Under the pieces are notes generated by a model. That model worked only from the letters and a program-made list of their open reading frames with translations. It did not search any database and had not been told where the DNA came from. Shown in pieces: positions 19,396 through 34,385 of a stretch of 64,000 nucleotides of DNA. Position numbers and translations under genes: made by a program. The DNA lies in the IMG/VR virus record IMGVR_UViG_3300021399_000005, positions 102,805-166,804 of that record. One strand, given 5' to 3'. Source of the stretch: a virus. Its lineage: Duplodnaviria > Caudoviricetes. Within the stretch, counting starts at the first letter, position 1. Each line of letters begins with the position of its first letter.

Positions 19396-19976
19396 CTTAA
19401 AAGTAATCAAAAGTTCACATTTTTTGCGCCCTAAGCCCCCCTTGCCTCTATATATAATGAAAGTTTGTGTGATATACTTGAACAAAACTGCCCAAAATTT
19501 TAAAAAAACTACTAAAAAAGTAGCCCCTATATATAAAAATATAGGGTTTTTTTTATATTATATCACATTTTTTATAAAAAGTCAACAGAAAATTTAAAAA
19601 AATTCCTAGTTTTCTCTCAAAAACTAGGCAAAAACCTATCTTTTATACGGGATACAGAACCGGATACCTGGCCAATAGAAAGGGGTACCTTTAAAAATAG
19701 GGGGATCCATTTCAAAAAACGGATTCAAAATCCTGGAACTAAAAGGGAAAATGAAACGAAAAACTGAAATCAAAAATGTGAGACGAAAAAGTGGCCAAAG
19801 CGTGGCTGGGCGAACACGTTAGTACCTGGGTTGTAACGAGAAGAGCGACTTAAGAAAAGGATGAATGCGCCAGGGCCGTTTTGGAGATCGTCAGATCGGG
19901 GTCCGCGCATTTTTACTTTCTTCTCTTGTTCGGAACCGTAGGTTCCTCACAAAAAAACGCCCTTATGGGCGTTTTT

Positions 19977-20330
19977 CTAGTCTTCTTCCTCTACTTCGTC
20001 TTCTGCTAACTGGTAGAAAGTTACACGCTTCTCAACAATCTTTTCTACATTACCAGCTTCTACTGCTACCTTCATAGCAGGAGCTAATTTCTGAGTAGTT
20101 ACATCTAACATGTCAGCTAAATCCTTTGCACGGTACTTAACTCCAGCTTCCATAACTTCTACAGCACGGTCAGCTAACTCTAACTTTGCAGTGTTTACAC
20201 GAGGCTTGCGCGCAGTTGCTCGCTTCTCTTGTGCGGCCTTTAATGCGATTAATTTTTCCTTAACTTCCTCATCCTGTACGGCCTCAATTGCTAATGCTAA
20301 TGCAGCTACATAAGTCATCTTCTGTTCCAT
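19977..20330 (-). CDS. Winged-helix protein, paralog 1 of 5
   Basis: KMTY..AL..AI, RKPRVN, YR..DLA.ML.V.TQKL.PA, VEKRV..Y. Confidence 0.8.
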   Translation of the reverse strand: MEQKMTYVAALALAIEAVQDEEVKEKLIALKAAQEKRATARKPRVNTAKLELADRAVEVMEAGVKYRAKDLADMLDVTTQKLAPAMKVAVEAGNVEKIVEKRVTFYQLAEDEVEEED

Positions 20331-20618
20331 AAGTTTCACCTGTTTTTTAACCTTTCTTTTTTCCTTATTTCTATATATATTATACATTATTTTTTTGCTA
20401 TTGTCCAATAAAAAAAATCTATTACAAAATCATTCCATCTAAAAATTTTTTAGAACCTTTTGGGAAACCAAGGGAAGGCCAAAGTGCGCAGTTGCGAAAT
20501 TAAAAAAGGGCCAAAGCGTGCCACTTTTGAAAACGCCGCGCCCCGGAGCTGGCCCCCGGCCGCGCGGCGCCAAACGCTCTTTTAGTTACTTAAATATAAA
20601 GGTATAAAAAAAAGAAGC

Positions 20619-20963
20619 TTATTCAGCTTCTTGCGCAGTGTAGAATGCTACACGTTTTACGACTTCTTTTACAACACGGCCGTCACCCAACAACAGGCCC
20701 ATAGCCGGAGTCAATTTTTGAGTAGATACGCCCAGCATTTTAGCCAAATCAGCCACTCGGTAAGCAACACCTTTTTCCATGATGTCATAAGCTTTTTCAG
20801 CCAACTCGATTTTAGCAGTGTTTACACGTGGTTTACGTTTCTGCGCTTTGCGGTCAAGCTGGTCTTTAAGTGCCTGAAGTTTCATACCTACTTCAGTATC
20901 CATGCCAACATGGCCAATAGCAACGTCAAGAGCATCAGCATAAGTCATTTTGATTTCAGTCAT
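20619..20963 (-). CDS. Winged-helix protein, paralog 2
   Basis: Same motifs as 19977-20330. Confidence 0.8.
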   Translation of the reverse strand: MTEIKMTYADALDVAIGHVGMDTEVGMKLQALKDQLDRKAQKRKPRVNTAKIELAEKAYDIMEKGVAYRVADLAKMLGVSTQKLTPAMGLLLGDGRVVKEVVKRVAFYTAQEAE

Positions 20964-21300
20964 ACATTTCACCTTTTACCTTTCTTTAGGATTTCCTATC
21001 CTTTTTACACTTATATTATATAATAATTTTTTGAATTTGTCTAATACTTAAAAGCTATAGCAAATTATTTCCTATATCAAAAAAGTATATCAAATTTGGA
21101 ATTAGTTTAGGGCGCTAAAGGACTTTTGGGAAACTGCGCGAAGGCCTAAAGCGGGACGTAACCGGTAGCAAAAATCTGAAAATCATATGAAAATCAGATT
21201 CGCTCCGCCTTCCAGCTCTCCGAGCGCAGGCGGAGCGCCAAATCATATGAAAATCCTATTTTCGCAAACATAATAAAAAAAGGGATATATTATCCCTTTC

Positions 21301-21660
21301 CTATGCTTTTGGCTTGCGATGCGCAGTTAATTTCAGAGTGTACTCTTTACCATTGTAACCAAAGTTAATTTCGGTTTCAGTTTTTACATTTGCAATTTCG
21401 GCAATTTGCTCAAGTGCCGGAAGAATCTGTTCAATAATGAACTTTTTATCCTCATCAACCTTGCGCTCTTTAACAGCTTTTTTACGTTCCTTTCCTTTTG
21501 GTTTCAGCTGTTGCTTAAGTACTGCTTTTGTACCCTCATCAAGAGTAGTGTTCTTTTCCTTGTCAATTTCAAGGTCATCTAAGTACATTTGTTCAGCTTC
21601 TTCACGGGTCAAGCCCAGCGCCATGTTAGCTTTAATCATATCTTCTTTTGTGCGTGCCAT
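21301..21660 (-). CDS. Hypothetical basic protein
   Basis: 119 aa; own promoter and AAGGTG SD. Confidence 0.75.
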   Translation of the reverse strand: MARTKEDMIKANMALGLTREEAEQMYLDDLEIDKEKNTTLDEGTKAVLKQQLKPKGKERKKAVKERKVDEDKKFIIEQILPALEQIAEIANVKTETEINFGYNGKEYTLKLTAHRKPKA

Positions 21661-21958
21661 GTTATCACCTTTCCTTTTCTATAAATATTGTATCAGATTT
21701 TTATGGGTCTGTCAATATCTTTTTTTATTTTCCTTTCCCTTTATCTATAAATATTATATCATATTTTAAAAATTTTGTCAACAACAAATTTATTTTTTTG
21801 ATTTTTGGGAAAATCAGCTAGAAAAGTGACATGCATAATGTCAATATGAAAATCATATGAACATCACAAACAACAAACTCGTCGCCCTTGCAGCAAAGCG
21901 CCCGCAAGGGCGACGCCAAAGGCTATGGGAAAAGGATAGGATTTTCCTATCCCTATTC

Positions 21959-22300
21959 CTATTCGGTTACCAACTGGTACTTAGCAACACGCTTTTCGAT
22001 AGCCTTAGCAACGGCACCGTTTTCAACGGCTACCCCTAAAGCTGGGGTTAACTTCTGAGTAGATACCCCTAAAATCTTAGCTAATTCAGCTGTACGGTAA
22101 GCAACCCCAGGCTCCATAATAGCCACTACCTTTTCAGCCAATTCAGCCTTTTCCTTGTTCACACGTGGCTTGCGATTTTCAGCCTTATGAGCTAACTGCT
22201 CCTTTAATGCAATTAACTTTTCTCCAACTGGGGTTTCAGCTCCAACTGCTTCAATAGCGTTCTCCAATGCAATTGCGTAAGTCATCTTAGTTTCTGTCAT
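21959..22300 (-). CDS. Winged-helix protein, paralog 3
   Basis: Same motifs as 19977-20330. Confidence 0.8.
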   Translation of the reverse strand: MTETKMTYAIALENAIEAVGAETPVGEKLIALKEQLAHKAENRKPRVNKEKAELAEKVVAIMEPGVAYRTAELAKILGVSTQKLTPALGVAVENGAVAKAIEKRVAKYQLVTE

Positions 22301-22695
22301 AGTTATCACCTTTTACCTTTCTTTCTTGGGATTTCCTTTCCCTTTTTACATCTTTATTATACTATGAATTTTTTTATTTGTCAACAGGTTTTTTTATTTT
22401 TTTGATTTCTGTTTTTTTACTTCCTTTCCCTATTGACACTTATATTATATATTATTTTTTTAAAATTGTCGAATACTTGTAAACTATATCTAGACCTTCT
22501 GCTATATAAAAAAGCTATATCTGATTTTCATATGATTTTGGGATAAGCATAAAAAAGGTCATTTGTCAAGTGTTTTTTTCAAAAATTTTTTAAAAGTTAG
22601 TCTTGACAAACCCGGCAGCCCTGCGCCCCTACGCAACATTTATGATTGCGCAGGGCTGCCGCCGACGGCATACAAAAAAAATAGTCCATTTTGGA

Positions 22696-22896
22696 CTATT
22701 GTATAATCTCATCTATGACTGCATAATTGTAATATTCCCAGTAAAGCTTTTCAAGTTGGCTTTCATCTCCCTCTAAATACTCATTAAGAAGATACTTCTT
22801 TAATTTTCGTTCTGCTTGTTCATAATCATTAGCAAAAACTTGAATAAGTCTAGCGTTTTCCATGCAATAGAAGAAAAAGATTCCCATTTTTATCAC
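22696..22896 (-). CDS. Small acidic early protein (family A)
   Basis: Own promoter and SD; FFF..QVFANDYEQA motif. Confidence 0.68.
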   Translation of the reverse strand: MIKMGIFFFYCMENARLIQVFANDYEQAERKLKKYLLNEYLEGDESQLEKLYWEYYNYAVIDEIIQ

Positions 22897-22957
22897 CTTT
22901 TCACCTTTCTTTTTACATTATTATTCTATCATAAGGGGTTGATTTTGTCAACCCCTT

Positions 22958-23647
22958 TTAATCAATTCTATTCTTTTGTACTTTCATCCAACAGGAATAT
23001 TTTAAACCATAATCGCAAGAGCCTTTGAAGTGTTTTTTAATATACTTAAAGATTTCTGATTCATCCAAAGCGTCATTTAATGCCGTATGACATTCAATAT
23101 AAGCAACATCATTTGTAATGTATCTATACATTGTTTCAGCACTTGTGGAAATATTTCCCTTTTCTGAAATGCAACCATTTTCATATGCCCATTGAACAAA
23201 TTGAGCAGTCTGTCCAACAGTATTACAAGCTAAGTTCCATAAGCAGAGTAATTTTTTCTTTTCAATTTTTGAAATTGTCTTTTGAGAATGACAGAAGAAT
23301 TCTTCACTATATTTAATAGCTTTAATATCAAATTGAAGATTGTATGCGCCAATACAGGATACATTATGTTTGCGCACATCAAACCATAACTCTTTTAAGA
23401 TTTCGCTAAAGTTTAAAACCATTTCTTGTTTACGAGCTTTTGCATAGTCTTTTTTGTAGCCTTGGTAGAAGTCGGAAGTGTCTAAAATCCACTTCCCGTT
23501 GACATGTAATTCTTTTACTAAGAATCGTTTTTTACAAACGATTTCACCTTTTGATAAAACTACATATCCTAAATCGTGTACAAGTGGGGAACCAAACGTT
23601 CCGATTGTTTCAGTGTCTAAAATCATAATATTTCTTGGTGTTCTCAT
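22958..23647 (-). CDS. DEDDh 3'-5' exonuclease
   Basis: ExoI ILDTET, ExoII AYNLQFD, ExoIII HTALND. Confidence 0.88.
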   Translation of the reverse strand: MRTPRNIMILDTETIGTFGSPLVHDLGYVVLSKGEIVCKKRFLVKELHVNGKWILDTSDFYQGYKKDYAKARKQEMVLNFSEILKELWFDVRKHNVSCIGAYNLQFDIKAIKYSEEFFCHSQKTISKIEKKKLLCLWNLACNTVGQTAQFVQWAYENGCISEKGNISTSAETMYRYITNDVAYIECHTALNDALDESEIFKYIKKHFKGSCDYGLKYSCWMKVQKNRID

Positions 23648-23709
23648 TTTTCTTATCTCCTTTAACTGTCTATATTGTATCATGGAAGGGTTGAGATGTC
23701 AACCCTTTT

Positions 23710-23943
23710 TTAATTAAAAATTATATCTTTTTCATTGTATTCGTAAACATGATAGAAATAAATAAGGCTTGAATCGCTTGTGATTTTGCTCACAACCTCA
23801 TAGTCCGGATTCTCAACTCCATCTTGTTTAAGCAAGTCAAGATTTTTTTCAAAAGCGATATGAAATGCGCCATTATAAATATAACATAAATCATCTGTTA
23901 ATTCTACATCACCGTAGACGTCTTCAATATACACACCAAACAT
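23710..23943 (-). CDS. Small acidic early protein
   Basis: Promoter plus GGAGGT SD. Confidence 0.7.
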   Translation of the reverse strand: MFGVYIEDVYGDVELTDDLCYIYNGAFHIAFEKNLDLLKQDGVENPDYEVVSKITSDSSLIYFYHVYEYNEKDIIFN

Positions 23944-24217
23944 TTTGTGTACCTCCTTTATCTGATTCTATAATAAGGGATAATTAAAAAAATGTCAACA
24001 AAAAATTTCGATAAGCACAAAACTTTTATTTGTCAAGCATTATTTTTGGGAAGCACAAAAATTCTTTTTGTCAAGGTCCAATTTGGACTAAAAATGCTGA
24101 AAGGTTAGTGTTGACAAACTCGCCGCCTTGACGTGAAAAAGCGTGCGTCAAGGCGGCGCCCAACGCAAGCTAAAGATTTCTGATTTTCATATGAAGAGGG
24201 GAAGTTCCCCTCTCCGA

Positions 24218-24550
24218 TTAGACTAAGCGATACAGAGCTACACGCTTTTCGATATGCTTTTCAATCTGTCCACCCTCAACGGCAACAGTCATAGCTGGAG
24301 TTAATTTCTGTGTAGACACGTCAAGCATTTTAGCAAGTTCAGCAACACGGTAGTCAGTGTTAGGTTCCATAACCTCAACTACCTTTTCGGCAAGGTCAAG
24401 TTTTGCCTGATTTACACGAGGTTTACGGTTAGCTGATTTGTGCGCTAACTGTTCTTTAAGAGCAGTTAATTTTTCCTTAACCTCTGCGTTGTCAACTGCG
24501 TTGATTGCGTTTTCTAAAGCTACTGCGTAAGTCATTTTTTCGTTTGTCAT
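24218..24550 (-). CDS. Winged-helix protein, paralog 4
   Basis: Same motifs as 19977-20330. Confidence 0.8.
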   Translation of the reverse strand: MTNEKMTYAVALENAINAVDNAEVKEKLTALKEQLAHKSANRKPRVNQAKLDLAEKVVEVMEPNTDYRVAELAKMLDVSTQKLTPAMTVAVEGGQIEKHIEKRVALYRLV

Positions 24551-25062
24551 AATTTTATCACCTTTTACCTTTCCTTTTGTGTCTTTATTATAACACTTTA
24601 TTTTTCTTTTGTAAAGAGGAAATTTATATTTTTTTCAGTGGGATTTTTCTTTATTTCCCTTTCCTTTTTACAATATAATTATATACTATTTTTTTAAAAC
24701 TGTCTAATACTTAAAAAGTATAGGAAAGCTTTTCATATATCAAAAAAGTATAGCAAAGGGTTTTAGGATTTTCATATGAATAAAAAAAATCAAGTTAGTC
24801 TTGACAAACTATTGGTGGATGTGGTACAATAAAATTTCGGCGTCCAGTCGTATAATGCGCTCGACTGGACGCCGACAAATAAAAAAAATAGTCCGAAATT
24901 GGACTAAATTAAGATTTTTTCGTTTTTCTTGAGGTAATTTCTAAAGCACGTTCAAATCCTTTCCTATATGCTTCTTTAATAGAATCGTCAACAGTGCAAT
25001 CTTTATTGAAATAGTTTCTGATTACAATGGCTTTTTTCTTTTCATATAATTTATTTTTCATT

Positions 25063-25314
25063 TTATTTTCCTCCTCTTTCTGATTCTATTATACCACTTT
25101 TTATTAAGCTGTCAAGCAAATTTTCTGAAAATTTACTTTCAAAATTTTCAAATTCTCCGGCATTAAAAGCTATAATTTCCATCACTGTTCTAATACCATA
25201 CATAAAATTGATATTACCATTTAAAGCATCATATTTTCCACAAAACAGTGGAGTTTGTTTTAAATTTTCTAACACAATTTGATAAGCTTTTTTTGTTTCT
25301 TTTCTATTAGCCAT
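25063..25314 (-). CDS. Hypothetical early protein
   Basis: Start MANRK after promoter and GAGGA SD. Confidence 0.7.
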   Translation of the reverse strand: MANRKETKKAYQIVLENLKQTPLFCGKYDALNGNINFMYGIRTVMEIIAFNAGEFENFESKFSENLLDSLIKSGIIESERGGK

Positions 25315-25526
25315 ATATGTTTTCCTCTTCTTTCTGATTATATTATATGCTATTATATTAAAATTGTCAACTAATTTTAGGAAAAAAGTTAAAAAATATT
25401 TTTTTAAAAAAGTCTTGACAAAAGAGTATGAATGTGATACAATGTAGATTTCGGTTGGTCTGCGCAAAGAGGCGACCGCAGACCAACCGCCAATCATATG
25501 AAAAAGGGTAGCCCCTTTTGGGCTAC

Positions 25527-25865
25527 CTATTCTGCTTTCAGCTGGTACTTAGCTACTCGCTTTTCAACGATTTTTTCAACAGTACCCTTTTCAACTGCGA
25601 CCTTTAAGGCTGGCGCAAGTTTCTGAGTGCTCACCTCAAGGATTTCAGCAAGCTCGGAAGTACGGTACGCTACTCCAACCTCCATAATTTCAGTTACCTT
25701 TTCAGCTAAATCTAACTTAGCTTGGTTGATTCTCGGTTTGCGAGTTCCAGCTTTATGCGCTAACTGTTCCTGAAGGGCTACTAATTTCATTCCTGTTTCA
25801 GTATCACGTCCTACTGCCTCAATTGCCTGTTCTAAAGCTACGTTGTAAGTTAATTTGTTTTCCAT
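25527..25865 (-). CDS. Winged-helix protein, paralog 5
   Basis: Same motifs as 19977-20330. Confidence 0.8.
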   Translation of the reverse strand: MENKLTYNVALEQAIEAVGRDTETGMKLVALQEQLAHKAGTRKPRINQAKLDLAEKVTEIMEVGVAYRTSELAEILEVSTQKLAPALKVAVEKGTVEKIVEKRVAKYQLKAE

Positions 25866-26439
25866 GTCATCACCTTTTAACCTTTCCTTATTGACATCTT
25901 TATTTTAACAGATTTTTTAGAGTCTGTCAACTCTTTTTTTTAAAATTTTTCGATTGCGCAATCTATGCTTTTTTCTTTTTTAACCATGTGGAACAGAGTT
26001 TTTTCTTTTCATGGGCTTTCATCTTAGGCAGAAAGCAACCTCTGAAAATGTCCTTATATTTATAGAGGCTTCGGCTTTTCAGTTGCCCATCCCTCATTTT
26101 GCGTAGAAAAGAGTTTTAATTTTTCGATTCACCCACCACTCTCATAGAATCTCTGTTTCATGGGGCATGACTCCCAGCGTGGAACTGTCTTTTATCCTTT
26201 CGGTCTTGTTTTTACCCAAGTAACTCTTTTTACATCTTTAGTATAACAGATTTTTTCAAATCTGTCAATACTTTTTTTTTGAAAGTTTTTTCCATTTTTT
26301 TGGTTTAATTCTTTTTAGGGATAGAAACCTCACGAGCGTGAAAACTTTCAAACACTCGTTTCAGAACCCTTTCAGAGTTTCCTCTGATTACATAATTAGT
26401 ATAGCAGATTTTTTATCTCTTGTCAATACTAATTATCTA

Positions 26440-26519
26440 ATCAAAGGGGAAAGGGATGAAAGGAGGAGGAAAATTCCCTTTCCCGTATCTAAAGGTTAGT
26501 AATTTTCTTTTCTTTTTAC
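26440..26519 (-). ncRNA. Candidate sRNA with anti-Shine-Dalgarno loop (copy 1)
   Basis: TTGACA-N17-TATAAT at 26554-26526; no ORF; stem GGGAAAGGGA/TCCCTTTCCC with loop TTTTCCTCCTCCTTT. Confidence 0.6.
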
Positions 26520-26911
26520 ATCTTTATTATACTTGATTCTTTTTTATTTGTCAAGTATTTTTTAAAGATTTTTTTGTAAGGAGCTTTTTCTATTTCTCTT
26601 TACATTATAAGTATATCAGATTTTTTAAAATCTGTCAATACTTTTTTTAGAAATCTTTCAGAGGATTTTTTATCTCTCTTCCTTATTTCTATATAAATTA
26701 TATACTAATTTTTTATAAAAATCAATAGGGAATTTCACATAAGCATAAAAAAATTTGTTTGTCAAGAGGGAATTTTGGGAAGCATAATTTTTTTATTTGT
26801 CAATAGCCATTTTGGTCTAAAATTGGTAGGAAGTTAGTCTTGACAAATTCGCTCCCCTGGCATAAAATGCGTGCGCCAGGGGAGCGCCAAGCGCAAGTAG
26901 TCCAAAATAGA

Positions 26912-27097
26912 CTAATAATCTTCATCTGGCTCAATTAAATAGCAAGTTTTCATTTCTTCATTTCTTGTGAATCTAAAGGTAATTTCTTCAATCATAACTT
27001 CACAAAAGGGTTCGCTTTCACCATTGATAAGGATTTCTTCATCTTGTTTTAATGTTTCTAATACTTCAATCAACTCCCTTACTTTCATTTTATCCAC
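26912..27097 (-). CDS. Small acidic early protein
   Basis: Promoter and SD; similar to 28145-28330 (ELIxxL..D.E). Confidence 0.65.
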   Translation of the reverse strand: MDKMKVRELIEVLETLKQDEEILINGESEPFCEVMIEEITFRFTRNEEMKTCYLIEPDEDY

Positions 27098-27146
27098 CTC
27101 TCTTTACATTCTTATATTACCATATGGGTTGACTTCTGTCAACCCA

Positions 27147-27359
27147 TTATTTTAAAATTTTTCTAATTGTTAATTCTGTGTAGCAGTCATAAAAAACGTC
27201 TTTAGCTTCATCTTCATCATAGCCTTCTTTTTCCATTAAATATTCAATCATTTTGTCACTTGCCGTTGAACGATTTTCAGCCATAATGACAACAACCTCA
27301 TCCTCTCTAAAAGAATCTCTGTCTAAAAATAAATATTGATGTAATTCGTCTCCCCACAT
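27147..27359 (-). CDS. Small acidic early protein (family A)
   Basis: YLFLD..VIMAENRSTA. Confidence 0.68.
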   Translation of the reverse strand: MWGDELHQYLFLDRDSFREDEVVVIMAENRSTASDKMIEYLMEKEGYDEDEAKDVFYDCYTELTIRKILK

Positions 27360-27419
27360 TGTTTTTATTTCCTTTCTTTTCTGATTATATTCTACTATAA
27401 AGATTAGACTTTGTCAACC

Positions 27420-27617
27420 TTATTCTAAAACTTTTTTAAGTTTTAATTCTCTATAATACCAATCAAACCAACCTTTTTGATGTTCCATAGCTTCTTTAGT
27501 CCATCCTTCATCTGCTAAAGAGTAAATGAGTTTATTTTTAGCTTCGTCTAATGTATCAGCATAAACGATATAAAATTCATCTTCGGATTCTTCATCTAAA
27601 AATACATAGTTATTCAT
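27420..27617 (-). CDS. Small acidic early protein (family A)
   Basis: YVFLD..IVYADTLDEA. Confidence 0.68.
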   Translation of the reverse strand: MNNYVFLDEESEDEFYIVYADTLDEAKNKLIYSLADEGWTKEAMEHQKGWFDWYYRELKLKKVLE

Positions 27618-27641
27618 TTTTATTACCTCTTTTATTATATT

Positions 27642-27854
27642 TTAATCAATTTTTTTAAAATCAACTGGAATAAATTCTTTCACGTAAATATTATTATCTA
27701 TTTTTTCGTGATGGTGGTATCCTAAATGTTTTTCTAAAAAATTTGTTTTATCAATATATTCAAAGAATTTTTGTTTTGCTTCTCGATAATTTTCAGCTTC
27801 TAACATATAACCTGCAGTTTCATATTCACGAATTAAGAAAAAATATTGATTCAT
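27642..27854 (-). CDS. Small early protein (family A)
   Basis: Start MNQYFF after GAGGT SD; MLEAENYREA. Confidence 0.65.
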   Translation of the reverse strand: MNQYFFLIREYETAGYMLEAENYREAKQKFFEYIDKTNFLEKHLGYHHHEKIDNNIYVKEFIPVDFKKID

Positions 27855-28144
27855 TTTATTTACCTCTTTTTCCTTCTCTTTTATCACATAACCAAAAAAT
27901 GAAATCATGAACATACCCGAATATATATAAAATAGCAAATAATGCGAACATAAGTAAAACGATTATTTCATCCATTGTGTATTTACCTTTCCTTTTCTGA
28001 TTATATTTTATCATGGAAGGGGCTGAAAGTCAACCCCTTTTTAGAAATTTTGATTTAAGAACATGTATTTTTTCATTTCAATCTTTTGTGTTTTAATTGT
28101 CATTATAATAAATACTAAAAGTAATGTCCTCATTTTATCACCTC

Positions 28145-28330
28145 TTATTCAAAGATTATTCCTTCAATCATAAGAATCGTTTCTCTTTTTGTGTTGGATA
28201 AATCTCTTGTTGAAATAAGATAAATATCTTCTTCTGTAAGTGGAATTTTCATATAATCTATATCTCTAGTATAAACCTCTGCGTCTAATGGCATAGTTTG
28301 CAAAATATTAATTAATTCTTTATTTGTCAT
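28145..28330 (-). CDS. Small early protein
   Basis: Start MTNKELINIL after AAGGAG SD. Confidence 0.65.
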   Translation of the reverse strand: MTNKELINILQTMPLDAEVYTRDIDYMKIPLTEEDIYLISTRDLSNTKRETILMIEGIIFE

Positions 28331-28404
28331 ATTGTTTCTCCTTTTTTCTATAATTATTCTATCATTTTTCTGTTGAGGTGTCAAGGGGAAATTTTCATTT
28401 CCCC

Positions 28405-28572
28405 TTAGTAGGTATCATATCCCCACATTTCAGCAACCTCATCGGTATCAGTGCAAATGTAAGAGAAATCGCGCAAGCCGTTTTCTAATGCGATATGAAC
28501 AGCTTCGTGGATATCCTCAGCCTGTACATAGAAAGTATAACCGTCTTCAGTTTCAAATAAGTAATTCATCAT
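28405..28572 (-). CDS. Small acidic early protein (family A, 55 aa)
   Basis: MMNYLFETEDGYTFYVQAEDIHEA; promoter and SD; not in ORF track. Confidence 0.65.
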   Translation of the reverse strand: MMNYLFETEDGYTFYVQAEDIHEAVHIALENGLRDFSYICTDTDEVAEMWGYDTY

Positions 28573-28789
28573 TTTAAGTTCCTCGCTTTCCTTATTTCTG
28601 ATTAAATTATAAGCTATTCTTTTAAATTTGTCAACTAATTTCGGGAAAAAAGTTTAAAAAATTTTTGTTGAAAAAAGTCTTGACAAAAAGCTGAAAATGT
28701 GATATAATTAAAAAACGCTGACCTTGCGGCTGGACGATAGCAAGAGGTTGCCGCAAGGTCAGCGGCAACGCAAGCAAGTTTATTTTGGA

Positions 28790-29011
28790 CTAATCATCTG
28801 AAAATTTTTCTTCGTAGATATGGTAGTAATCATTATAGGTATCTTTTGTTAACTCGGCAATCACTTCATCAGAAACTTCTTCTTCACCAGTTTCATTAAA
28901 ATAAATTTCAGTATTTCCATCAATGCAGAAATCCCAAGCTTTTTGATAGTCTTTAAAGAAAATGAAGAACCCAAGGTCTAAACCACTATGAACCATATAA
29001 AATTTTTCCAT
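28790..29011 (-). CDS. Small acidic early protein
   Basis: Start MEKFY after AAGGTG SD. Confidence 0.65.
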   Translation of the reverse strand: MEKFYMVHSGLDLGFFIFFKDYQKAWDFCIDGNTEIYFNETGEEEVSDEVIAELTKDTYNDYYHIYEEKFSDD

Positions 29012-29073
29012 TTTTATCACCTTTCCTTTTCTATAATTATTATAGCAGATGGTAAGGGGTTTTGCAACCCCTT

Positions 29074-29319
29074 TTACCAAATTTCAGTAATTAATTTATC
29101 GTGGTCTATTCTTACAAGTTTAATCAGTGTTCTACGAGCTTGTTTCAATTCGTCTTTTGTTATTTCCTCAACGATTTCAGCAGTTTGAGGGTTAATTTCA
29201 AGAATTTCTTTGTCGTCCGGGATAGTGTCATCCAAATCAGCAATTAATGCCCAGGTTGCAAAAATGGCTCTTTTATCTCTTGCGTTAAAATTTACTTCAG
29301 TTCTAGTTGTGATGTCCAT
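29074..29319 (-). CDS. Small acidic early protein
   Basis: Promoter and SD; weak similarity to 29384-29635. Confidence 0.68.
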   Translation of the reverse strand: MDITTRTEVNFNARDKRAIFATWALIADLDDTIPDDKEILEINPQTAEIVEEITKDELKQARRTLIKLVRIDHDKLITEIW

Positions 29320-29383
29320 TATTTTTTCCTCTCTTTCCTTATCTGTATAAATTATACTATATTGAGAGGGGTTTTGTCAACCC

Positions 29384-29635
29384 CTATTTCTCAACAATTT
29401 GAATTTTATTATCATCAAAAATAAATTCCGTTAAATCTTCTAAAAATCCTCCTACCGTTTCAAGATTTCTCATATCCATTGTTCTTTTTTCATTATTAAC
29501 GCTTTGAATATAGTGATGGTAATAGTCCCAATCACAAATGTCCTCACAAAAATCTATCATGAGTTTATATACGGTACGAATAGCTTGAACCTCTTCTGTT
29601 GAAAGTGTAACAATTGTAACTGTTTCTTTTGTCAT
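29384..29635 (-). CDS. Small acidic early protein
   Basis: Promoter and SD. Confidence 0.68.
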   Translation of the reverse strand: MTKETVTIVTLSTEEVQAIRTVYKLMIDFCEDICDWDYYHHYIQSVNNEKRTMDMRNLETVGGFLEDLTEFIFDDNKIQIVEK

Positions 29636-29825
29636 AAATTTTTTTCCTCTACTTTCCTTATTTCTATATAAATTATATATTATTTTTTAATAGTTGTCAA
29701 ATAGAAATTTTGGGAAAGCACAAAATTTTTTGTTTGTCAAGAAAAAATTTAAAAAAATGTCGTGGAAGTTAGTCTTGACAAACTCGTTCCCTGTGCCAAG
29801 GACGCGCGCACAGGGAACGCCAAAT

Positions 29826-29902
29826 AAAAAAGCAGGAGCCTTGCCCAAAGGAGGAGGAAAAATGGCAAGCCCTGCGTTAGAAATTTTCTATATCCTTTTT
29901 AC
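29826..29902 (-). ncRNA. Candidate sRNA with anti-Shine-Dalgarno loop (copy 2)
   Basis: TTGACA-N17-TATAAT at 29937-29909; stem GCAGG..CTTGCC/GGCAAG..CCTGC, loop TTTTTCCTCCTCCTTT, then U-tract. Confidence 0.62.
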
Positions 29903-29933
29903 ATTTTTATTATACAATATTTTTTTTCTTTTG

Positions 29934-30152
29934 TCAATCAATAATTTCAATATTTTTACTAAAAATCATTCTACCTTCAGTTACATTTTCTTCTATAATA
30001 TCTTCAATAAGGGTACAACAATTTTCATCTTCATCTTCAAAATCATATTCTTTATAATTTTCATCCCAGAAATAAACAAATTCTCCAAATTTAACTTTTT
30101 TTGGCGGATTTTCATTTTTTACCATTTCTAATAATTCAAAGTAACTAATCAT
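29934..30152 (-). CDS. Small acidic early protein (tandem paralog of 30202-30420)
   Basis: MISYFELLEM...KNIEIID; TGA stop overlaps next TTGACA. Confidence 0.7.
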   Translation of the reverse strand: MISYFELLEMVKNENPPKKVKFGEFVYFWDENYKEYDFEDEDENCCTLIEDIIEENVTEGRMIFSKNIEIID

Positions 30153-30201
30153 ATTCTTTACCTCTTTTCTGCCTTTATTATACAATATCTTTTTTCTTTT
30201 G

Positions 30202-30420
30202 TCAATCAATAATTTCAATAATATTTTTAGTTATTAATTCAATAGGGTCAAATTCTCTTGAAACATCGCCAAGCAAAGAATAAGACTCATAAGGCTCATG
30301 TTCTCTACCCTTCCGAAAGTATCCATTGTCCCATCGATATACAGAATCGTTATAAAAAACTCTTTCCGGCTGAGTTCCCTTTTCTTCCATTTCTAATAAT
30401 TCAAGATATGTTACCATCAT
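30202..30420 (-). CDS. Small acidic early protein
   Basis: MVTYLELLEM...KNIIEIID; TGA stop overlaps next TTGACA. Confidence 0.7.
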   Translation of the reverse strand: MMVTYLELLEMEEKGTQPERVFYNDSVYRWDNGYFRKGREHEPYESYSLLGDVSREFDPIELITKNIIEIID

Positions 30421-30481
30421 TTTTTTTACCTCTTTTCTGATTATATTATATAAAAATAAAAGAGATTTGTCAATCTCTTTT

Positions 30482-30949
30482 TTATATAATTTTGCTTTGT
30501 TTTAATTCGTTTAATCTATCAATTAAGTTTTCTTCTGTTGGGTTGATGGTATGTCCCATTTTCCAACCTTTTCTAATTTTATCATTATCATCTACTAAAA
30601 TTTGATAACCACCGTTTTTTCTAGTGCAATTTGCTTTTGTAGTTCCATACTTTACTAAATGGATTTCATCATATGGAAACTCATATTTTTCTAACCAATT
30701 TAATTTTGCAACTCTAACGGCATTGTCATAATCTTTTGTAGCGTTTTTTGCAAGCCATGTTGTAATGGCTATTTTCCACCCCTTTTTCTTTAATTCTACT
30801 AAAACGTTCTTTAAAGCTTTCATATCCCATAAAGGTTCACATACTTCATAAGGTCTAGTATTTTCGTTTTCTAAATCATTCAGCCATCCATCTACACCAT
30901 AGAAATTATTTAAAGTTCCATCCATATCAAATACTAAAGTTTTATTCAT
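30482..30949 (-). CDS. HAD-superfamily hydrolase (5'(3')-nucleotidase-like)
   Basis: LVFDMDGTL motif I, KLNWL, ILVDDN motif IV. Confidence 0.82.
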   Translation of the reverse strand: MNKTLVFDMDGTLNNFYGVDGWLNDLENENTRPYEVCEPLWDMKALKNVLVELKKKGWKIAITTWLAKNATKDYDNAVRVAKLNWLEKYEFPYDEIHLVKYGTTKANCTRKNGGYQILVDDNDKIRKGWKMGHTINPTEENLIDRLNELKQSKII

Positions 30950-31187
30950 TGTTATGTCCTCCTCTTTATCTGTCTATATTATAGCAGTTACATAATAAGA
31001 AGTCAACAGAAACCGTATGTAACTTTTATGTAACTAGTTAGCTGTGACTAACAGGAAAAAGTGCGAACTTTGGCAATAGACCGTTTTGGACTAAAAATTT
31101 GGTAAAAATTAGCCTTGACAAACTCGCCCCCTTCAGCTGACATGGGCGTGAAGGGGGCGCCAAACAAAAAAGAGCCTTGGCAGACTC

Positions 31188-31472
31188 TTAAATGTCATAT
31201 GAAGTAGCACCCCAGCAAACTGAGCAGTCAGAGAAATGATACCATTCATACATGTCAGAACAATCACACTCAATTGATTCATGCTTAAGAAGCTCTTTAG
31301 CGCAGTAGATTTTTGTATAATCTACATCACGATATTTTTCACCCCAGTCTTCATCGAAACCAATGAAATCGTTGGTGTCAATGTAGACCATTGTAAATCC
31401 ACGCTGAGGAACGATTCGCCATTCAACATCCTTACCTAACCATTTCAGCATTTCTTTGATTTCTTTTAACAT
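31188..31472 (-). CDS. Hypothetical early protein
   Basis: Promoter and GGAGG SD. Confidence 0.7.
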   Translation of the reverse strand: MLKEIKEMLKWLGKDVEWRIVPQRGFTMVYIDTNDFIGFDEDWGEKYRDVDYTKIYCAKELLKHESIECDCSDMYEWYHFSDCSVCWGATSYDI

Positions 31473-31553
31473 ATTGTTTTCCTCCTTTGGAGCTTAGCTC
31501 CTTTATCTGATTATATTATAGTTGAAGATTAGGAAAAAGTCAAGGACTTTTTC

Positions 31554-31700
31554 CTAAAACTTTTCAACCTGAATGATGTTGTCTTCTACGTATTCAGTTC
31601 CGTAAATGTCACAAAGCAGCTCCCAAGCAGTTTCAACGCAAATGGCTTGAATAATTTCAGCTGTTCCATCCGTTGTATCTAAGAAATAAAAGTTTGTCAT
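31554..31700 (-). CDS. Small acidic early protein (family A, 48 aa)
   Basis: MTNFYFLDTTDGTAEIIQAICVETA; promoter and AAGGAG SD. Confidence 0.6.
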   Translation of the reverse strand: MTNFYFLDTTDGTAEIIQAICVETAWELLCDIYGTEYVEDNIIQVEKF

Positions 31701-31769
31701 GCTGTGTTCTCCTTATCCTTTTTACATCTTTATTATATACTAGATTTCTTCTATTGTCAACAAGAAATT

Positions 31770-32018
31770 TTAATCTTCTTGTTCAATTACATAAAAGTAA
31801 GCGATTTGTGTCCAATCAATTTCACGACCATTCCACAGAGTGCTTGGTTTTTCAATGTTTAATCTTTCACATTCAGTTTGAACATGTTCAAAAGTTTCAT
31901 AAGTTAGATAAGCTAAAAATTCATCACATGCTGTCTCCCATTGAGTGCCTTTATTATAAACTGTTGGTTCTACTGTCTTGTAGCAAACTGCTCTGATAAG
32001 TTCCTTTTGTTTTTTCAT
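31770..32018 (-). CDS. Hypothetical early protein
   Basis: Promoter and SD. Confidence 0.68.
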   Translation of the reverse strand: MKKQKELIRAVCYKTVEPTVYNKGTQWETACDEFLAYLTYETFEHVQTECERLNIEKPSTLWNGREIDWTQIAYFYVIEQED

Positions 32019-32324
32019 TGTCTTGTCCCTCTTTCTGATTATAATATATCATTGACTTTGTCTTTTGTCAACAAAATTTTGGGATTTTTTTATAAAAAAT
32101 TTTTTACAAAAAAGTCTTGACAAAAGTTGCCGGGATGTGATATACTTTAAATTCGCCCCAGCTGCTTTGGTCGTGGCACAAAGATCCCCGCAGCTGGGGC
32201 GGCAAACCTTATTATAACATGAAATCAAAATTTTGTCAAGCATTTTTTAAAAATTTTTTCATTTTAAATTTTTCCTTTTTCTATCTTTAGTATATCACAA
32301 AAATAAGAGGGTGTCAACCCTCTT

Positions 32325-32579
32325 TTAATCAAAATCTGCATAATTTATTTGTTTATCGTAATCTGTTACCTCTAAATTTTTTAATTCAGTAAACATGTCT
32401 TGATTTTCAAGCAAGAAGTCATATACCATATCTTCTTGATTACTAGACCATTTTTCAGGATTGAGGGGAATACGTTTCTTTAACTCTTTATTTATTTTTT
32501 TAATTAAATTTGGAGTAATTTCAAGTTCAAGGTGTTTTGTAACAGTGGTTATGTCTTCTCTAATGATGTGGAATTTCAT
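32325..32579 (-). CDS. Hypothetical early protein
   Basis: Promoter and AAGGAG SD. Confidence 0.68.
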   Translation of the reverse strand: MKFHIIREDITTVTKHLELEITPNLIKKINKELKKRIPLNPEKWSSNQEDMVYDFLLENQDMFTELKNLEVTDYDKQINYADFD

Positions 32580-32634
32580 TTTAAAATCTCCTTTTCTTTT
32601 TACATCTTTATTATACGGATTTCATTTCAAAATG

Positions 32635-32817
32635 TCAATAGTCTTTTCCATATTTTTTTAAAATTATACCATTTAAAATTAAAATAAATGAAATCAAAAT
32701 CAAAAATGGAATACTTTTCAATGAAAAATCATTCACACAAGCTAAGAAAAATAAAATAAGAATAGATACTGTTTCAATGGTTAGTTGGATTGATGGTCTT
32801 AAAAAACGTCTTTTCAT
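32635..32817 (-). CDS. Small membrane protein (2 TM)
   Basis: Two hydrophobic stretches; AAGGAG SD. Confidence 0.62.
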   Translation of the reverse strand: MKRRFLRPSIQLTIETVSILILFFLACVNDFSLKSIPFLILISFILILNGIILKKYGKDY

Positions 32818-32892
32818 TTTATGGGGTCTCCTTCTTTTTACATTTATATTATATCATTTTTTTATACGGATATCAATAAAAAAACTGAGATA

Positions 32893-33132
32893 TTATCTCA
32901 GTACATAGAATAGATTTAAAGCAACCATTGCTAAATTTAAACAAATCAAATTAATACGGGAGCCCGTTAAACTATAACATAAACTAATTAAACAGCCTGT
33001 GAGAAACAGATAATTCATGTTATGTCCGGTGATAATACCAATTGCGCAGATGATATAAATTAAGCTAATTAAATCGTTTAATTCAAAGTGATATTTTTTG
33101 TTCAATTCAAATTTTTCTTTTAAGTTTTTCAT
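32893..33132 (-). CDS. Small membrane protein (3 TM)
   Basis: Hydrophobic; GAGGAG SD. Confidence 0.65.
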   Translation of the reverse strand: MKNLKEKFELNKKYHFELNDLISLIYIICAIGIITGHNMNYLFLTGCLISLCYSLTGSRINLICLNLAMVALNLFYVLR

Positions 33133-33497
33133 TTTTCTTTTCTCCTCTTGGGGTTTCTTTTCTTACCCCTCTTTCTGATTATATTATACGGGATACTGTT
33201 GTAAAAGTCAAGTAAAAAAGTCTCAAGAAGAGACTTTTTTAAATTCTTGTTTTAGTAATTTTAAAATTTTTAATTGTGAAATCAAATGTTTTTTGAATTC
33301 TTTTTAATTCAACCAGGGCTTCAATCTCATTAGTGAAAACCATTTTCATTATTTCTGTTGTTTCAAAAAATTCTATTTCTAATTTATATATTGATACGGT
33401 CATAGTCTTAACCTTCCTTTTCTAACTATATTATACCATACCATTTTCAAAAATCAATATCAAAAACCCCTTTTTTAGGGGTCTATTTTATTTTTCT

Positions 33498-33719
33498 TTA
33501 ATTTAATTCTACGGGCTTGCGGTTAAACCAAAATGCCAAGTCAATTGCTTTGTCAAGGTTCCTTAAATATCTATTCAATGCTACTTGACGTCTTCCCATT
33601 TCACCAGCTTTGTTCTCGTTGCCGTGCGCCAAATACCACTGCTCAGCCATGAATAATCCTTCTCTATAAGTGCATTGTAATGTCCAATAATCCTTCTTAA
33701 ATTGTTCAGATGTTTTCAT
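33498..33719 (-). CDS. Hypothetical early protein
   Basis: Promoter and GAGGAGG SD. Confidence 0.68.
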   Translation of the reverse strand: MKTSEQFKKDYWTLQCTYREGLFMAEQWYLAHGNENKAGEMGRRQVALNRYLRNLDKAIDLAFWFNRKPVELN

Positions 33720-33790
33720 ATGGGGTTCCTCCTCTTTCCCTTTATCTGATTAAATTATATATCATCCATTTAAAAAAGTCAATCACTTTT

Positions 33791-34066
33791 TAGTCCAAGT
33801 TGGTCTATTTTAAAACTTTTTTGGTTAGTTATGACTAACTGTTAAAAAGTTACTTTTTCTTACAATTAGTTAAGGCTAACTAACCATTTAGTTAAGGTAA
33901 TTAATGGTTAGCCTTGACTAACTAAAAAGTGAAGGTTAGTCTTGACAAACTGGTTTAGACCATATTGGTCTAAGTTAGTTGCAACTAACTATTTTAGGAA
34001 AGTTAGTCTTGACTAACTCTTTAGCTTGTGATAGACCAAATTGGTCTAAGGTTAGCCTTGACTAAC
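33791..34066 (+). repeat. Dense cluster of two palindrome families: GTTAG-N6-C(T/A)AAC and TAG(A/T)CC-N5-GG(A/T)CTA
   Basis: At least 6 copies of the first and 3 of the second within 280 bp; further copies dispersed 22.6-31.1 kb. Confidence 0.8.
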
Positions 34067-34166
34067 TCGGCGGCGCGCGAGTCCTCACCCAATGCAGAGG
34101 CCTCCGCCGCGCCGCCGACGCATGGCCAATAAGTGCACTCTCTAGCTTTGAAGAGAAGAAGAAGAC

Positions 34167-34385
34167 TTAGTCTTCTTCTTCAAAGAATTCAAGAATGTCT
34201 TCAGCAAGTTGACAACCTTCTTCAATTGCTTGAAGATAAGCGTTGCCATACATTTGCTCTGCATAGTCGTTGCCAAAGTATAAGTCAATCAATCTGTGTT
34301 CATAGTGAAAGTGTGCGTTTAAGTCATAGTTGTTGTCATCTGTCATCGCCAATAAAGCTTTTGCATAGTTCTCTGTTAGTGTCAT
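34167..34385 (-). CDS. Very acidic small early protein
   Basis: GAGGAG SD; D/E rich. Confidence 0.7.
   Translation of the reverse strand: MTLTENYAKALLAMTDDNNYDLNAHFHYEHRLIDLYFGNDYAEQMYGNAYLQAIEEGCQLAEDILEFFEEED

Follow-up and report, generated by a model that had tools for sequence, protein, structure and literature searches.

GC-rich hairpins and predicted backward promoters at the ends of early mini-operons in uncultured gut phages

The early region of an uncultured phage raises the question of why a family of GC-rich hairpins, no two alike in sequence, should stand one after another at the ends of its genes. The DNA concerned is a stretch of 64,000 nucleotides (the window, whose coordinates are used throughout) that forms the last 64 kb of a 166,804-bp phage record in IMG/VR, IMGVR_UViG_3300021399_000005 (Caudoviricetes). 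Between ~19.5 and 35 kb every credible open reading frame (ORF) lies on the minus strand, the ORFs being short and equipped with ribosome sites, and the hairpins punctuate this early module. An earlier note on the same DNA counted at least 13 such elements, placed antisense promoters just before four of them, and proposed either a small hairpin-RNA array or structure-defined recombination sites that shuffle anti-defence cassettes. The analysis described here indicates, on comparative sequence grounds, that the hairpin is part of a real and widespread module, a junction unit closing early mini-operons in many uncultured gut phages of Clostridia, and that this unit is a variant of known promoter/stem-loop cassettes.

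An independent scan of the whole 166,804-bp genome for perfect, GC-rich Watson-Crick hairpins, in which each element was then checked singly, returned 13 of them between 20534 and 34118 (Table 1), the number the note had given as a minimum. Their arms measure 8–15 bp, as it had stated, and their loops 11–30 nt rather than 9–30 nt; the stems are 67–100% GC, with folding energies of −22 to −33 kcal/mol, and begin with CG in 11 cases and with TCG in two, a CCAA-like 3' flank following 10 of the 13. With a filter of 70% GC and loops of 9–30 nt, 11 hairpins were found in 20.4–34.2 kb versus none in each of 30 shuffles. Elsewhere in the genome, GC-rich perfect hairpins of at least 8 bp amount to four short terminator-type stems, with no comparable CG-started one among them. 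A 12-mer box, AGTCTTGACAAA, is present in eight exact copies, all on the + strand and all inside the hairpin region.

Table 1. Hairpins and associated regulatory features of the early module (window coordinates)
Feature	Position	Strand	Stem (bp)	Loop (nt)	Class	Remarks
GC hairpin 1	20534..20569		8	20	C	After terminator 20612-20632 of winged-helix paralogue 20619-20972
GC hairpin 2	21201..21237		10	17	C	Positional counterpart of full promoter-hairpin units in L181, L184
GC hairpin 3	21880..21915		12	12	C	
GC hairpin 4	22613..22661		14	21	A	Box 22596-22611 directly upstream
GC hairpin 5	24121..24158		13	12	A	Box 24104-24119
GC hairpin 6	24837..24875		14	11	B	6-7 nt past -10 of + promoter 24801-24830; model R1, 48.3 bits
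GC hairpin 7	25452..25489		13	12	B	8 nt past -10 of + promoter 25415-25443; R1, 62.7 bits
GC hairpin 8	26850..26886		12	13	A	Box 26833-26848; -10-like hexamer in loop, 17 nt after -35
GC hairpin 9	28716..28764		15	19	B	7 nt past -10 of + promoter 28680-28708
GC hairpin 10	29785..29819		12	11	A	Box 29768-29783
GC hairpin 11	31125..31159		11	13	A	Box 31108-31123; counterpart of class B units by 155-aa gene in L181, L184, L188
GC hairpin 12	32154..32201		12	24	B	Between convergent promoters + 32117-32146 and - 32211-32239
GC hairpin 13	34067..34118		11	30	A	Abuts last box of palindromic cluster; same box-plus-hairpin layout in relatives
Antisense sigma-A-type promoter, extended -10	24801..24830	+				11/12 consensus
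Antisense sigma-A-type promoter, extended -10	25415..25443	+				11/12 consensus
Antisense sigma-A-type promoter, extended -10	28680..28708	+				12/12 consensus
Antisense sigma-A-type promoter, extended -10	32117..32146	+				11/12 consensus
Promoter with -10 in loop of hairpin 8	26840-26868	+				
Sense-strand consensus promoter	32211..32239	-				Start also at base of hairpin 12
Ordinary intrinsic terminator (T1), example	22680..22700	-				Between gene end and GC hairpin
Other T1 terminators	20612-20632, 21276-21302, 24889-24906, 25507-25527, 31170-31189, 34158-34181					
Five GTTAG-N6-CTAAC palindromic boxes	33824..34066					Operator-like cluster; ends at hairpin 13

Read in the direction of the genes, the junctions follow one order: the gene end, a terminator with a T-run (T1), a spacer of 0–40 nt, the GC hairpin, and then one of three arrangements. 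In the four class B units a full + promoter precedes the stem on the opposite strand, its extended −10 ending 6–8 nt before it; in the six class A units the stem lies directly at, or no more than 4 nt from, the end of a −35-like box, a spacing that leaves no room for a −10; and in the three class C units the hairpin has no box. Hairpin 8 alone in class A carries a −10-like hexamer in its loop at the correct spacing. All four full promoters described in the note are present where it had placed them, as is the fifth with its −10 inside a loop; they are indeed antisense, the credible genes of the region being all on the minus strand, and the hairpins do lie past gene ends, with a separate terminator in between in most cases. 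The class A box is a one-mismatch version of the palindrome GTTAG-N6-CTAAC, six exact copies of which were found in the window versus 0.03 expected, five in the cluster next to hairpin 13 and one at 31037–31052. That class A might be a promoter split by an extrudable hairpin was rejected, no −10 being found past the hairpin at a sensible spacing.

Nor is the hairpin a canonical intrinsic terminator. On both strands of a standard unit, T-rich sequence precedes the hairpin and A-rich sequence follows, whereas an intrinsic terminator has the opposite; this candidate was rejected on the A-rich sequence and on the long loops. T1, for its part, works in one direction: on the promoter strand an A-run precedes it in 36 of 48 units, and a T-rich tail (at least 5 T in the 9 nt after the reversed T1) follows it in 7 of 48, the unit of hairpin 7 in the window being one of these exceptions. 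T1 was on that count rejected as a bidirectional terminator defining short RNAs, so that most backward transcripts would be expected to continue into the operon and not to stop as short RNAs.

The strength of selection on these elements could be gauged against a sister phage (G001) that is ~96% identical and collinear across the region and on which all substitution counts rest. The stems carry no substitution in 314 positions, compared with 3.8% for the whole region, and the loops carry 4 in 215; in the 30-nt flanks there are 3 in 390 on the promoter or box side versus 22 in 390 on the other. Taken by themselves, the nine hairpins of classes A and C are likewise unchanged, where ~8 changes would have been expected. 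The intact stems and nearly invariant left flanks argue that hairpins and left flanks are under purifying selection, the promoter-less units included.

Pairing is preserved although the stems differ. In a covariance seed of 10 sequences of equal geometry, picked from perfect stems, 99.2% of cells pair, and 9 of the 13 pairs have changed on both sides, none on one side only. A search with the covariance model built on this seed recovered 64 units, on a single strand within each locus, and 60 sequences aligned to it show 188 double changes with 96.3% of cells paired, a value somewhat inflated because the alignment was fitted to the model. The notion of different sequences with preserved pairing is thus borne out as that of a family defined by structure and held by selection. 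The non-Watson-Crick cells are split evenly between G.T (12) and A.C (12), so that the RNA of neither strand appears to be preferred and pairing seems to be kept for both strands or for the DNA. Some apical features are semi-conserved on the promoter strand, namely an inner stem ending in GCG or TGC and an AGCGC-like loop end, and GC tetranucleotide palindromes occur in 18 of 57 loops versus 10.3 ± 2.4, a modest excess. A scan of 19–36 kb against Rfam gave no family, the only matches being three chance-level miRNA rows (E 0.06–0.33).

The anatomy of the unit is clearest in relatives. Use of the 155-aa gene of the early module as query led to 21 related loci, and in five of these (L181, L184, L186, L188 and G004) the units are nearly all of class B, with a perfect promoter, a GGAA(A/T)TT-type start region, the GC stem, CCAA or an A-run, and the reversed T1. 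At least 11 hairpin units with a perfect backward promoter are packed into 12 kb of L181, each closing a minus-strand mini-operon; the 28 forward promoters of that locus are all without a hairpin. Beside the 155-aa gene the unit is of class B or two-sided in L181, L184 and L188 and of class A in the present phage and G003; after a 119-aa gene it is of class B in L181 and L184 and of class C here. Because relatives carry class B at the same positions, classes A and C look derived.

Viral contigs and metagenome-assembled genomes (MAGs) were further searched with a pattern of the promoter and start region alone, in which the hairpin was not included. The pattern retrieved 28 viral contigs (GC 32–48%, up to 402 kb), 26 of them with the hairpin, and 16 further contigs binned with Clostridia (Eubacteriales, Acutalibacteraceae, Ruminococcaceae and Lachnospiraceae). 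The stem starts 7–8 nt past the −10 in 34 of 58 non-redundant units. Across 35 phage or MAG loci, consensus promoters that bear a hairpin number 69 on the minority, or antisense, strand and 14 on the majority strand; those without a hairpin number 88 and 524, respectively. In the window and in L181 no ORF with a ribosome site follows the hairpin-bearing promoters. A looser pattern of box, gap and CCAA gave at least 114 matches in IMG/VR, all attributable to chance, with two weak stems among the 80 loci inspected.

What such a unit might do is best accommodated, in our view and at somewhat less than an even chance, by a two-way junction, in which the hairpin would both cap a stable antisense RNA and form in sense transcripts that read through, thereby insulating and damping early operons. 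This reading starts from the anatomy, conservation, strand bias and spacing set out above; the production of the RNAs, their stability and their effects we infer. Each unit would close a minus-strand early mini-operon with the last gene, T1, the GC hairpin and a backward sigma-A promoter, beyond which come the forward promoters of the next operon. Given the spacing from the −10, a transcript from the backward promoter would begin with the stem, and the promoter would thus give rise to a non-coding RNA with a very stable 5' stem-loop. In Firmicutes, 5'-terminal stem-loops protect RNA without ribosomes from 5'-end-dependent decay (reviewed in PMC3997798); forward mRNAs, which are ribosome-protected, have no such stem-loop. 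As the stem is a perfect palindrome, a sense transcript that escaped T1 would fold there too. Early operons might in this way be kept as closed units, each facing a stable antisense transcript that comes in from its 3' end, and convergent transcription together with pairing to the 3' region of the mRNA would damp or time-limit early expression.

In the phage under study the backward promoter is intact in four or five units, six hairpins are joined to a −35-like box that would here form part of an operator-like palindrome, and three have no promoter remnant. The promoter-less hairpins are still conserved, and the hairpin must therefore also work without a promoter of its own; the perfect palindrome and the absence of a wobble bias point further to an action of the stem on the sense strand, or at the level of DNA, as well. 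Of the small hairpin-RNA array proposed earlier, one part stands, since a hairpin at the antisense transcript start in nearly every unit of the relatives makes hairpin-led RNAs a fair prediction; the RNAs would not usually be short and self-contained, given how rarely a T-rich tail follows on the promoter strand. A more ambitious version, which we consider unlikely, is a clade-wide device of gut Clostridia phages in which a hairpin-capped, long-lived antisense RNA for each early mini-operon, transcribed from a perfect host promoter, accumulates, outlasts the unstable mRNAs and serves as a timer shutting off host-takeover genes, the array in this phage being partly rewired from promoter control to an operator bound by an expanded family of winged-helix proteins encoded within it.

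Several observations weigh against the two-way junction. Nine of the 13 window units have no usable −10 and yet are fully conserved, which antisense RNA by itself cannot account for in this phage. The stem of the L188 units begins only 2–4 nt past the −10, so that a transcript would be missing some of the 5' arm. Such units are few, or went undetected, in the close relatives L182, L185, L187 and Phass-1, the last of which, the nearest deposited phage and TAG-recoded, shows no clear hairpin array. With T-rich sequence before the hairpin and A-rich sequence after it, the canonical terminator rule does not account for an effect on sense read-through. Finally, forward and backward promoters are of the same type, and there is consequently no obvious timing switch.

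A first alternative, in itself doubtful, is that the hairpin is purely an insulator, which, aided by RNA polymerase at the backward promoter or by a protein bound to the box, only blocks leakage between early operons, the backward RNA being a by-product. The constant position of the hairpin between T1 and the next operon's promoters is what such an insulator would show, the promoter-less hairpins are as conserved as the others, and the stem-loops of the related T4-type cassettes have been shown to terminate (PMC2839356). The sense-strand tails point both ways: those of classes A and C are moderately T-rich, richer than those of class B, but the tail of a standard unit begins with A and has ~3 T in 8 nt, poor material for an intrinsic terminator, and loops of 11–30 nt are likewise atypical. 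An insulator, moreover, has no need of a sharp 7–8 nt spacing or of a perfect backward-promoter consensus. If the hairpins proved to be back-up insulators and nothing else, the units would be an ordinary variant of promoter/terminator cassettes.

The earlier suggestion of recombination or cruciform sites belongs to a second alternative, that of an element acting at the level of DNA, in which hairpins, cruciforms or recombination-prone motifs shuffle early cassettes, perhaps bound by the winged-helix paralogues. It is decidedly unlikely, although the stems are perfectly Watson-Crick with a wobble bias toward neither strand, the flanks are AT-rich, operator-like palindromes abut hairpins, and five winged-helix paralogues lie within the array. 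Relatives share with this phage only 4 of the ~45 early-region ORFs, in conserved order, although the junction architecture persists. Central spacers of 11–30 nt disfavour cruciform extrusion from duplex DNA. Tyrosine recombinase (PF00589) is absent from the 167-kb genome, all 14 controls being positive, and neither the Y1 (HUH) transposase (PF01797) nor a serine recombinase is present; the stems, differing between units, offer no homology for recombination.

Breakpoints speak to the same alternative, within the limits of a single genome pair, this phage and G001. Of ~10 mosaic block boundaries, six fall within 15 nt of forward promoters, one at the 3' edge of hairpin 9 (28762) and one at 22681, ~20 nt past hairpin 4 and at its terminator. 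By rough binomial estimates, two of ~16 breakpoints at most 20 nt from a hairpin 3' edge are mildly above chance (P about 0.025), and six of ten boundaries at forward promoters clearly so (about 1e-3). Two boundaries lie at or near hairpin edges and most at sense promoters, which fits a shuffling at conserved regulatory motifs generally, of the kind seen in T4-type phages, rather than hairpin-specific recombination. Two insertions in G001, 296 and 590 bp long, also lie at forward promoters (30964 and 31510), and the block most diverged from it (29942–30439) holds two adjacent 72-aa ORFs, 29934–30152 and 30202–30420, each with a consensus promoter of its own.

Recombination sites of the attC or HUH type, as the note had imagined them, do not survive these results. 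Integron attC sites and the window hairpins are alike in being structure-defined families of variable sequence that follow gene ends, but the genome has no integrase, all 13 stems are perfect, with neither extrahelical bases nor R/L core boxes (GTTRRRY), the AAACT/CCAA-like flanks are non-complementary, and the genes have promoters of their own. REP/BIME or IS200/IS605-type hairpins, which come in sequence-conserved copies and with a Y1 transposase or RAYT, were rejected as well, PF01797 being absent and the stems all differing in sequence. The supposed anti-defence cassettes fare no better: the flanked genes are ORFans save for a nucleotidase-like and exonuclease-like proteins, and none was identified as anti-defence.

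Least probable of all is a trans-acting role, in which stable 5'-triphosphate hairpin RNAs would titrate a host RNase, an RNA-binding protein or a defence sensor. Many copies do stand behind the strongest possible promoters, and the apical stem and loop are semi-conserved on the promoter strand, but a promoter-strand terminator that would define a short RNA is usually lacking, units with short loops (G003, G004 and L188) do not have the loop motif, nine of the 13 window units are without a promoter, and Rfam gave no match. Two other candidates were discarded: a tRNA-like minihelix with a CCA end (ARAGORN found none there, the loops do not resemble a T-loop, and CCA follows only ~70% of stems, a share that is lower still in L181) and, on its geometry of 5–7 bp stems and 3-nt loops, an N4-type hairpin promoter. 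The loop motif may also have some likeness to the CS-6 box of ssoA single-strand origins, a comparison set aside because a duplex rather than a folded promoter precedes the hairpin.

Among published systems, the closest in kind are the promoter-early stem-loop (PeSL) cassettes of T4-type myoviruses (Arbiol et al. 2010, PMC2839356; Comeau et al. 2014, PMC4122927), an analogy that the note had drawn correctly. Like the window units, PeSLs are short intergenic cassettes that combine a near-perfect host-type promoter (11–12 of 12 consensus positions in the window, perfect in relatives) with a stem-loop, and both are repeated many times in a variable early region beside ORFans; PeSLs sit at boundaries of gene replacement between close relatives, where, going by the one pair compared, the window units may lie as well. 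The PeSL stem-loop may be found between the −35 and −10, over a box, or immediately ahead of the start, positions reminiscent of classes A and B. However, the PeSL promoter is the forward promoter of the next gene and is followed by its ribosome site, whereas the promoter here points backward without a gene and the next gene has separate forward promoters; the PeSL stem-loop is small (a G-run and a C-run) and sits inside the promoter, whereas here stems of 8–15 bp with long loops are accompanied by an ordinary terminator before the hairpin; and the hosts are Gram-negative bacteria in the one case and probably Clostridia in the other. A literature search found no paper describing a hairpin-capped backward-promoter module.

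Antisense RNAs offer a second comparison. The lambda OOP RNA (pO-oop-tO) and the 3'-overlapping antisense RNAs of Firmicute type I toxin-antitoxin systems are single and short and end at their own terminator. They share with the window units a promoter past the 3' end of a gene that points back, giving, in the window units by prediction, a non-coding RNA complementary to the 3' region of the mRNA; unlike them, the present module recurs wherever an operon ends, has a GC hairpin at its start and in most cases has no terminator on its own strand (present in 7 of 48 units). The stem-loops that stabilize the 5' ends of mRNAs (ermC, the aprE leader and ompA; PMC3997798) likewise lie within a few nucleotides of the transcript start, but they are leaders of single coding mRNAs, whereas here a repeated family stands on predicted antisense transcripts.

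If the backward promoters fire, many uncultured gut phages would spend a dozen of the strongest possible host promoters on non-coding transcripts directed against their own early genes, and the two-way junction, if true, would constitute a general layer of early-gene control or insulation in Firmicute phages and offer synthetic biology a set of small insulator parts that differ in sequence. The module is in any event easily recognized by its consensus promoter, GGAA(A/T)TT-type start region and GC palindrome, and in metagenomic phage contigs it serves as a marker of the early region, of the direction of the genes and of probable Clostridia hosts.

As for the phage itself, its portal protein shares 35% identity with the portal of Phass-1, a gut phage, and 27% with those of Enterococcus schiekviruses, 24 tRNA genes lie in the window, and a 127-bp terminal repeat of the record looks like an assembly overlap. 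The early ORFs are nearly all ORFans, the exceptions being the nucleotidase-like 155-aa protein and two exonuclease-like proteins, and they are driven by ~43 near-consensus sigma-A-type promoters on the minus strand between 19500 and 33800. A conserved TTCCCAAAA-like element lies upstream of the −35 in many of these promoters, and several early operons have two or three of them in tandem.

Five paralogous minus-strand genes of ~115 aa, 55–59% identical, lie at 19977–20339, 20619–20972, 21959–22309, 24218–24550 and 25527–25865. Their products combine a long helix with a C-terminal winged helix and show weak fold matches to ArsR/SmtB/MarR-type repressors and to a minimal Z-alpha fold; no Pfam or PHROG match was obtained, and homologues were found only in G001. 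They are candidate binders of the palindromic boxes. Each gene is followed by a terminator and then, in four of the five cases, by an intact GC hairpin; in the fifth the hairpin is degenerate (19880–19930, a 7-bp outer stem with a long loop) and is possibly a decayed 14th element.

Other palindromes accompany the array. TAGACC...GGTCTA palindromes lie among the GTTAG-N6-CTAAC boxes of the 240-bp cluster, which stands where the early module has its upstream end and may be an array of operators or a hub akin to an origin; boxes of the same kind stand beside a GC hairpin also in the relatives G003, L184, L186, L187 and L192–L199. A palindromic motif, TTCATATGA, occurs in 10 copies near hairpins (21183–31203) versus 1.3 expected in the window and is contained in the direct repeat that flanks hairpin 2, a 16-nt sequence that includes TCATATGA on each side. 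A 17-bp palindrome, TAG(A/T)CC-N5-GG(A/T)CTA, is conserved in sequence and was found six times (22682–22698, 26898–26914, 31077–31093, 33791–33807, 33956–33972 and 34032–34048) versus 0.23 expected; some of them serve at the same time as terminators on the minus strand, and others lie beside forward −35 boxes. Lastly, open frames of 41–64 aa cross six of the hairpins on the minus strand (20439–20573, 21115–21246, 26800–26934, 28631–28777, 31038–31163 and 32049–32243); most begin with TTG and have weak ribosome sites, and they have probably arisen by chance in GC-rich DNA.

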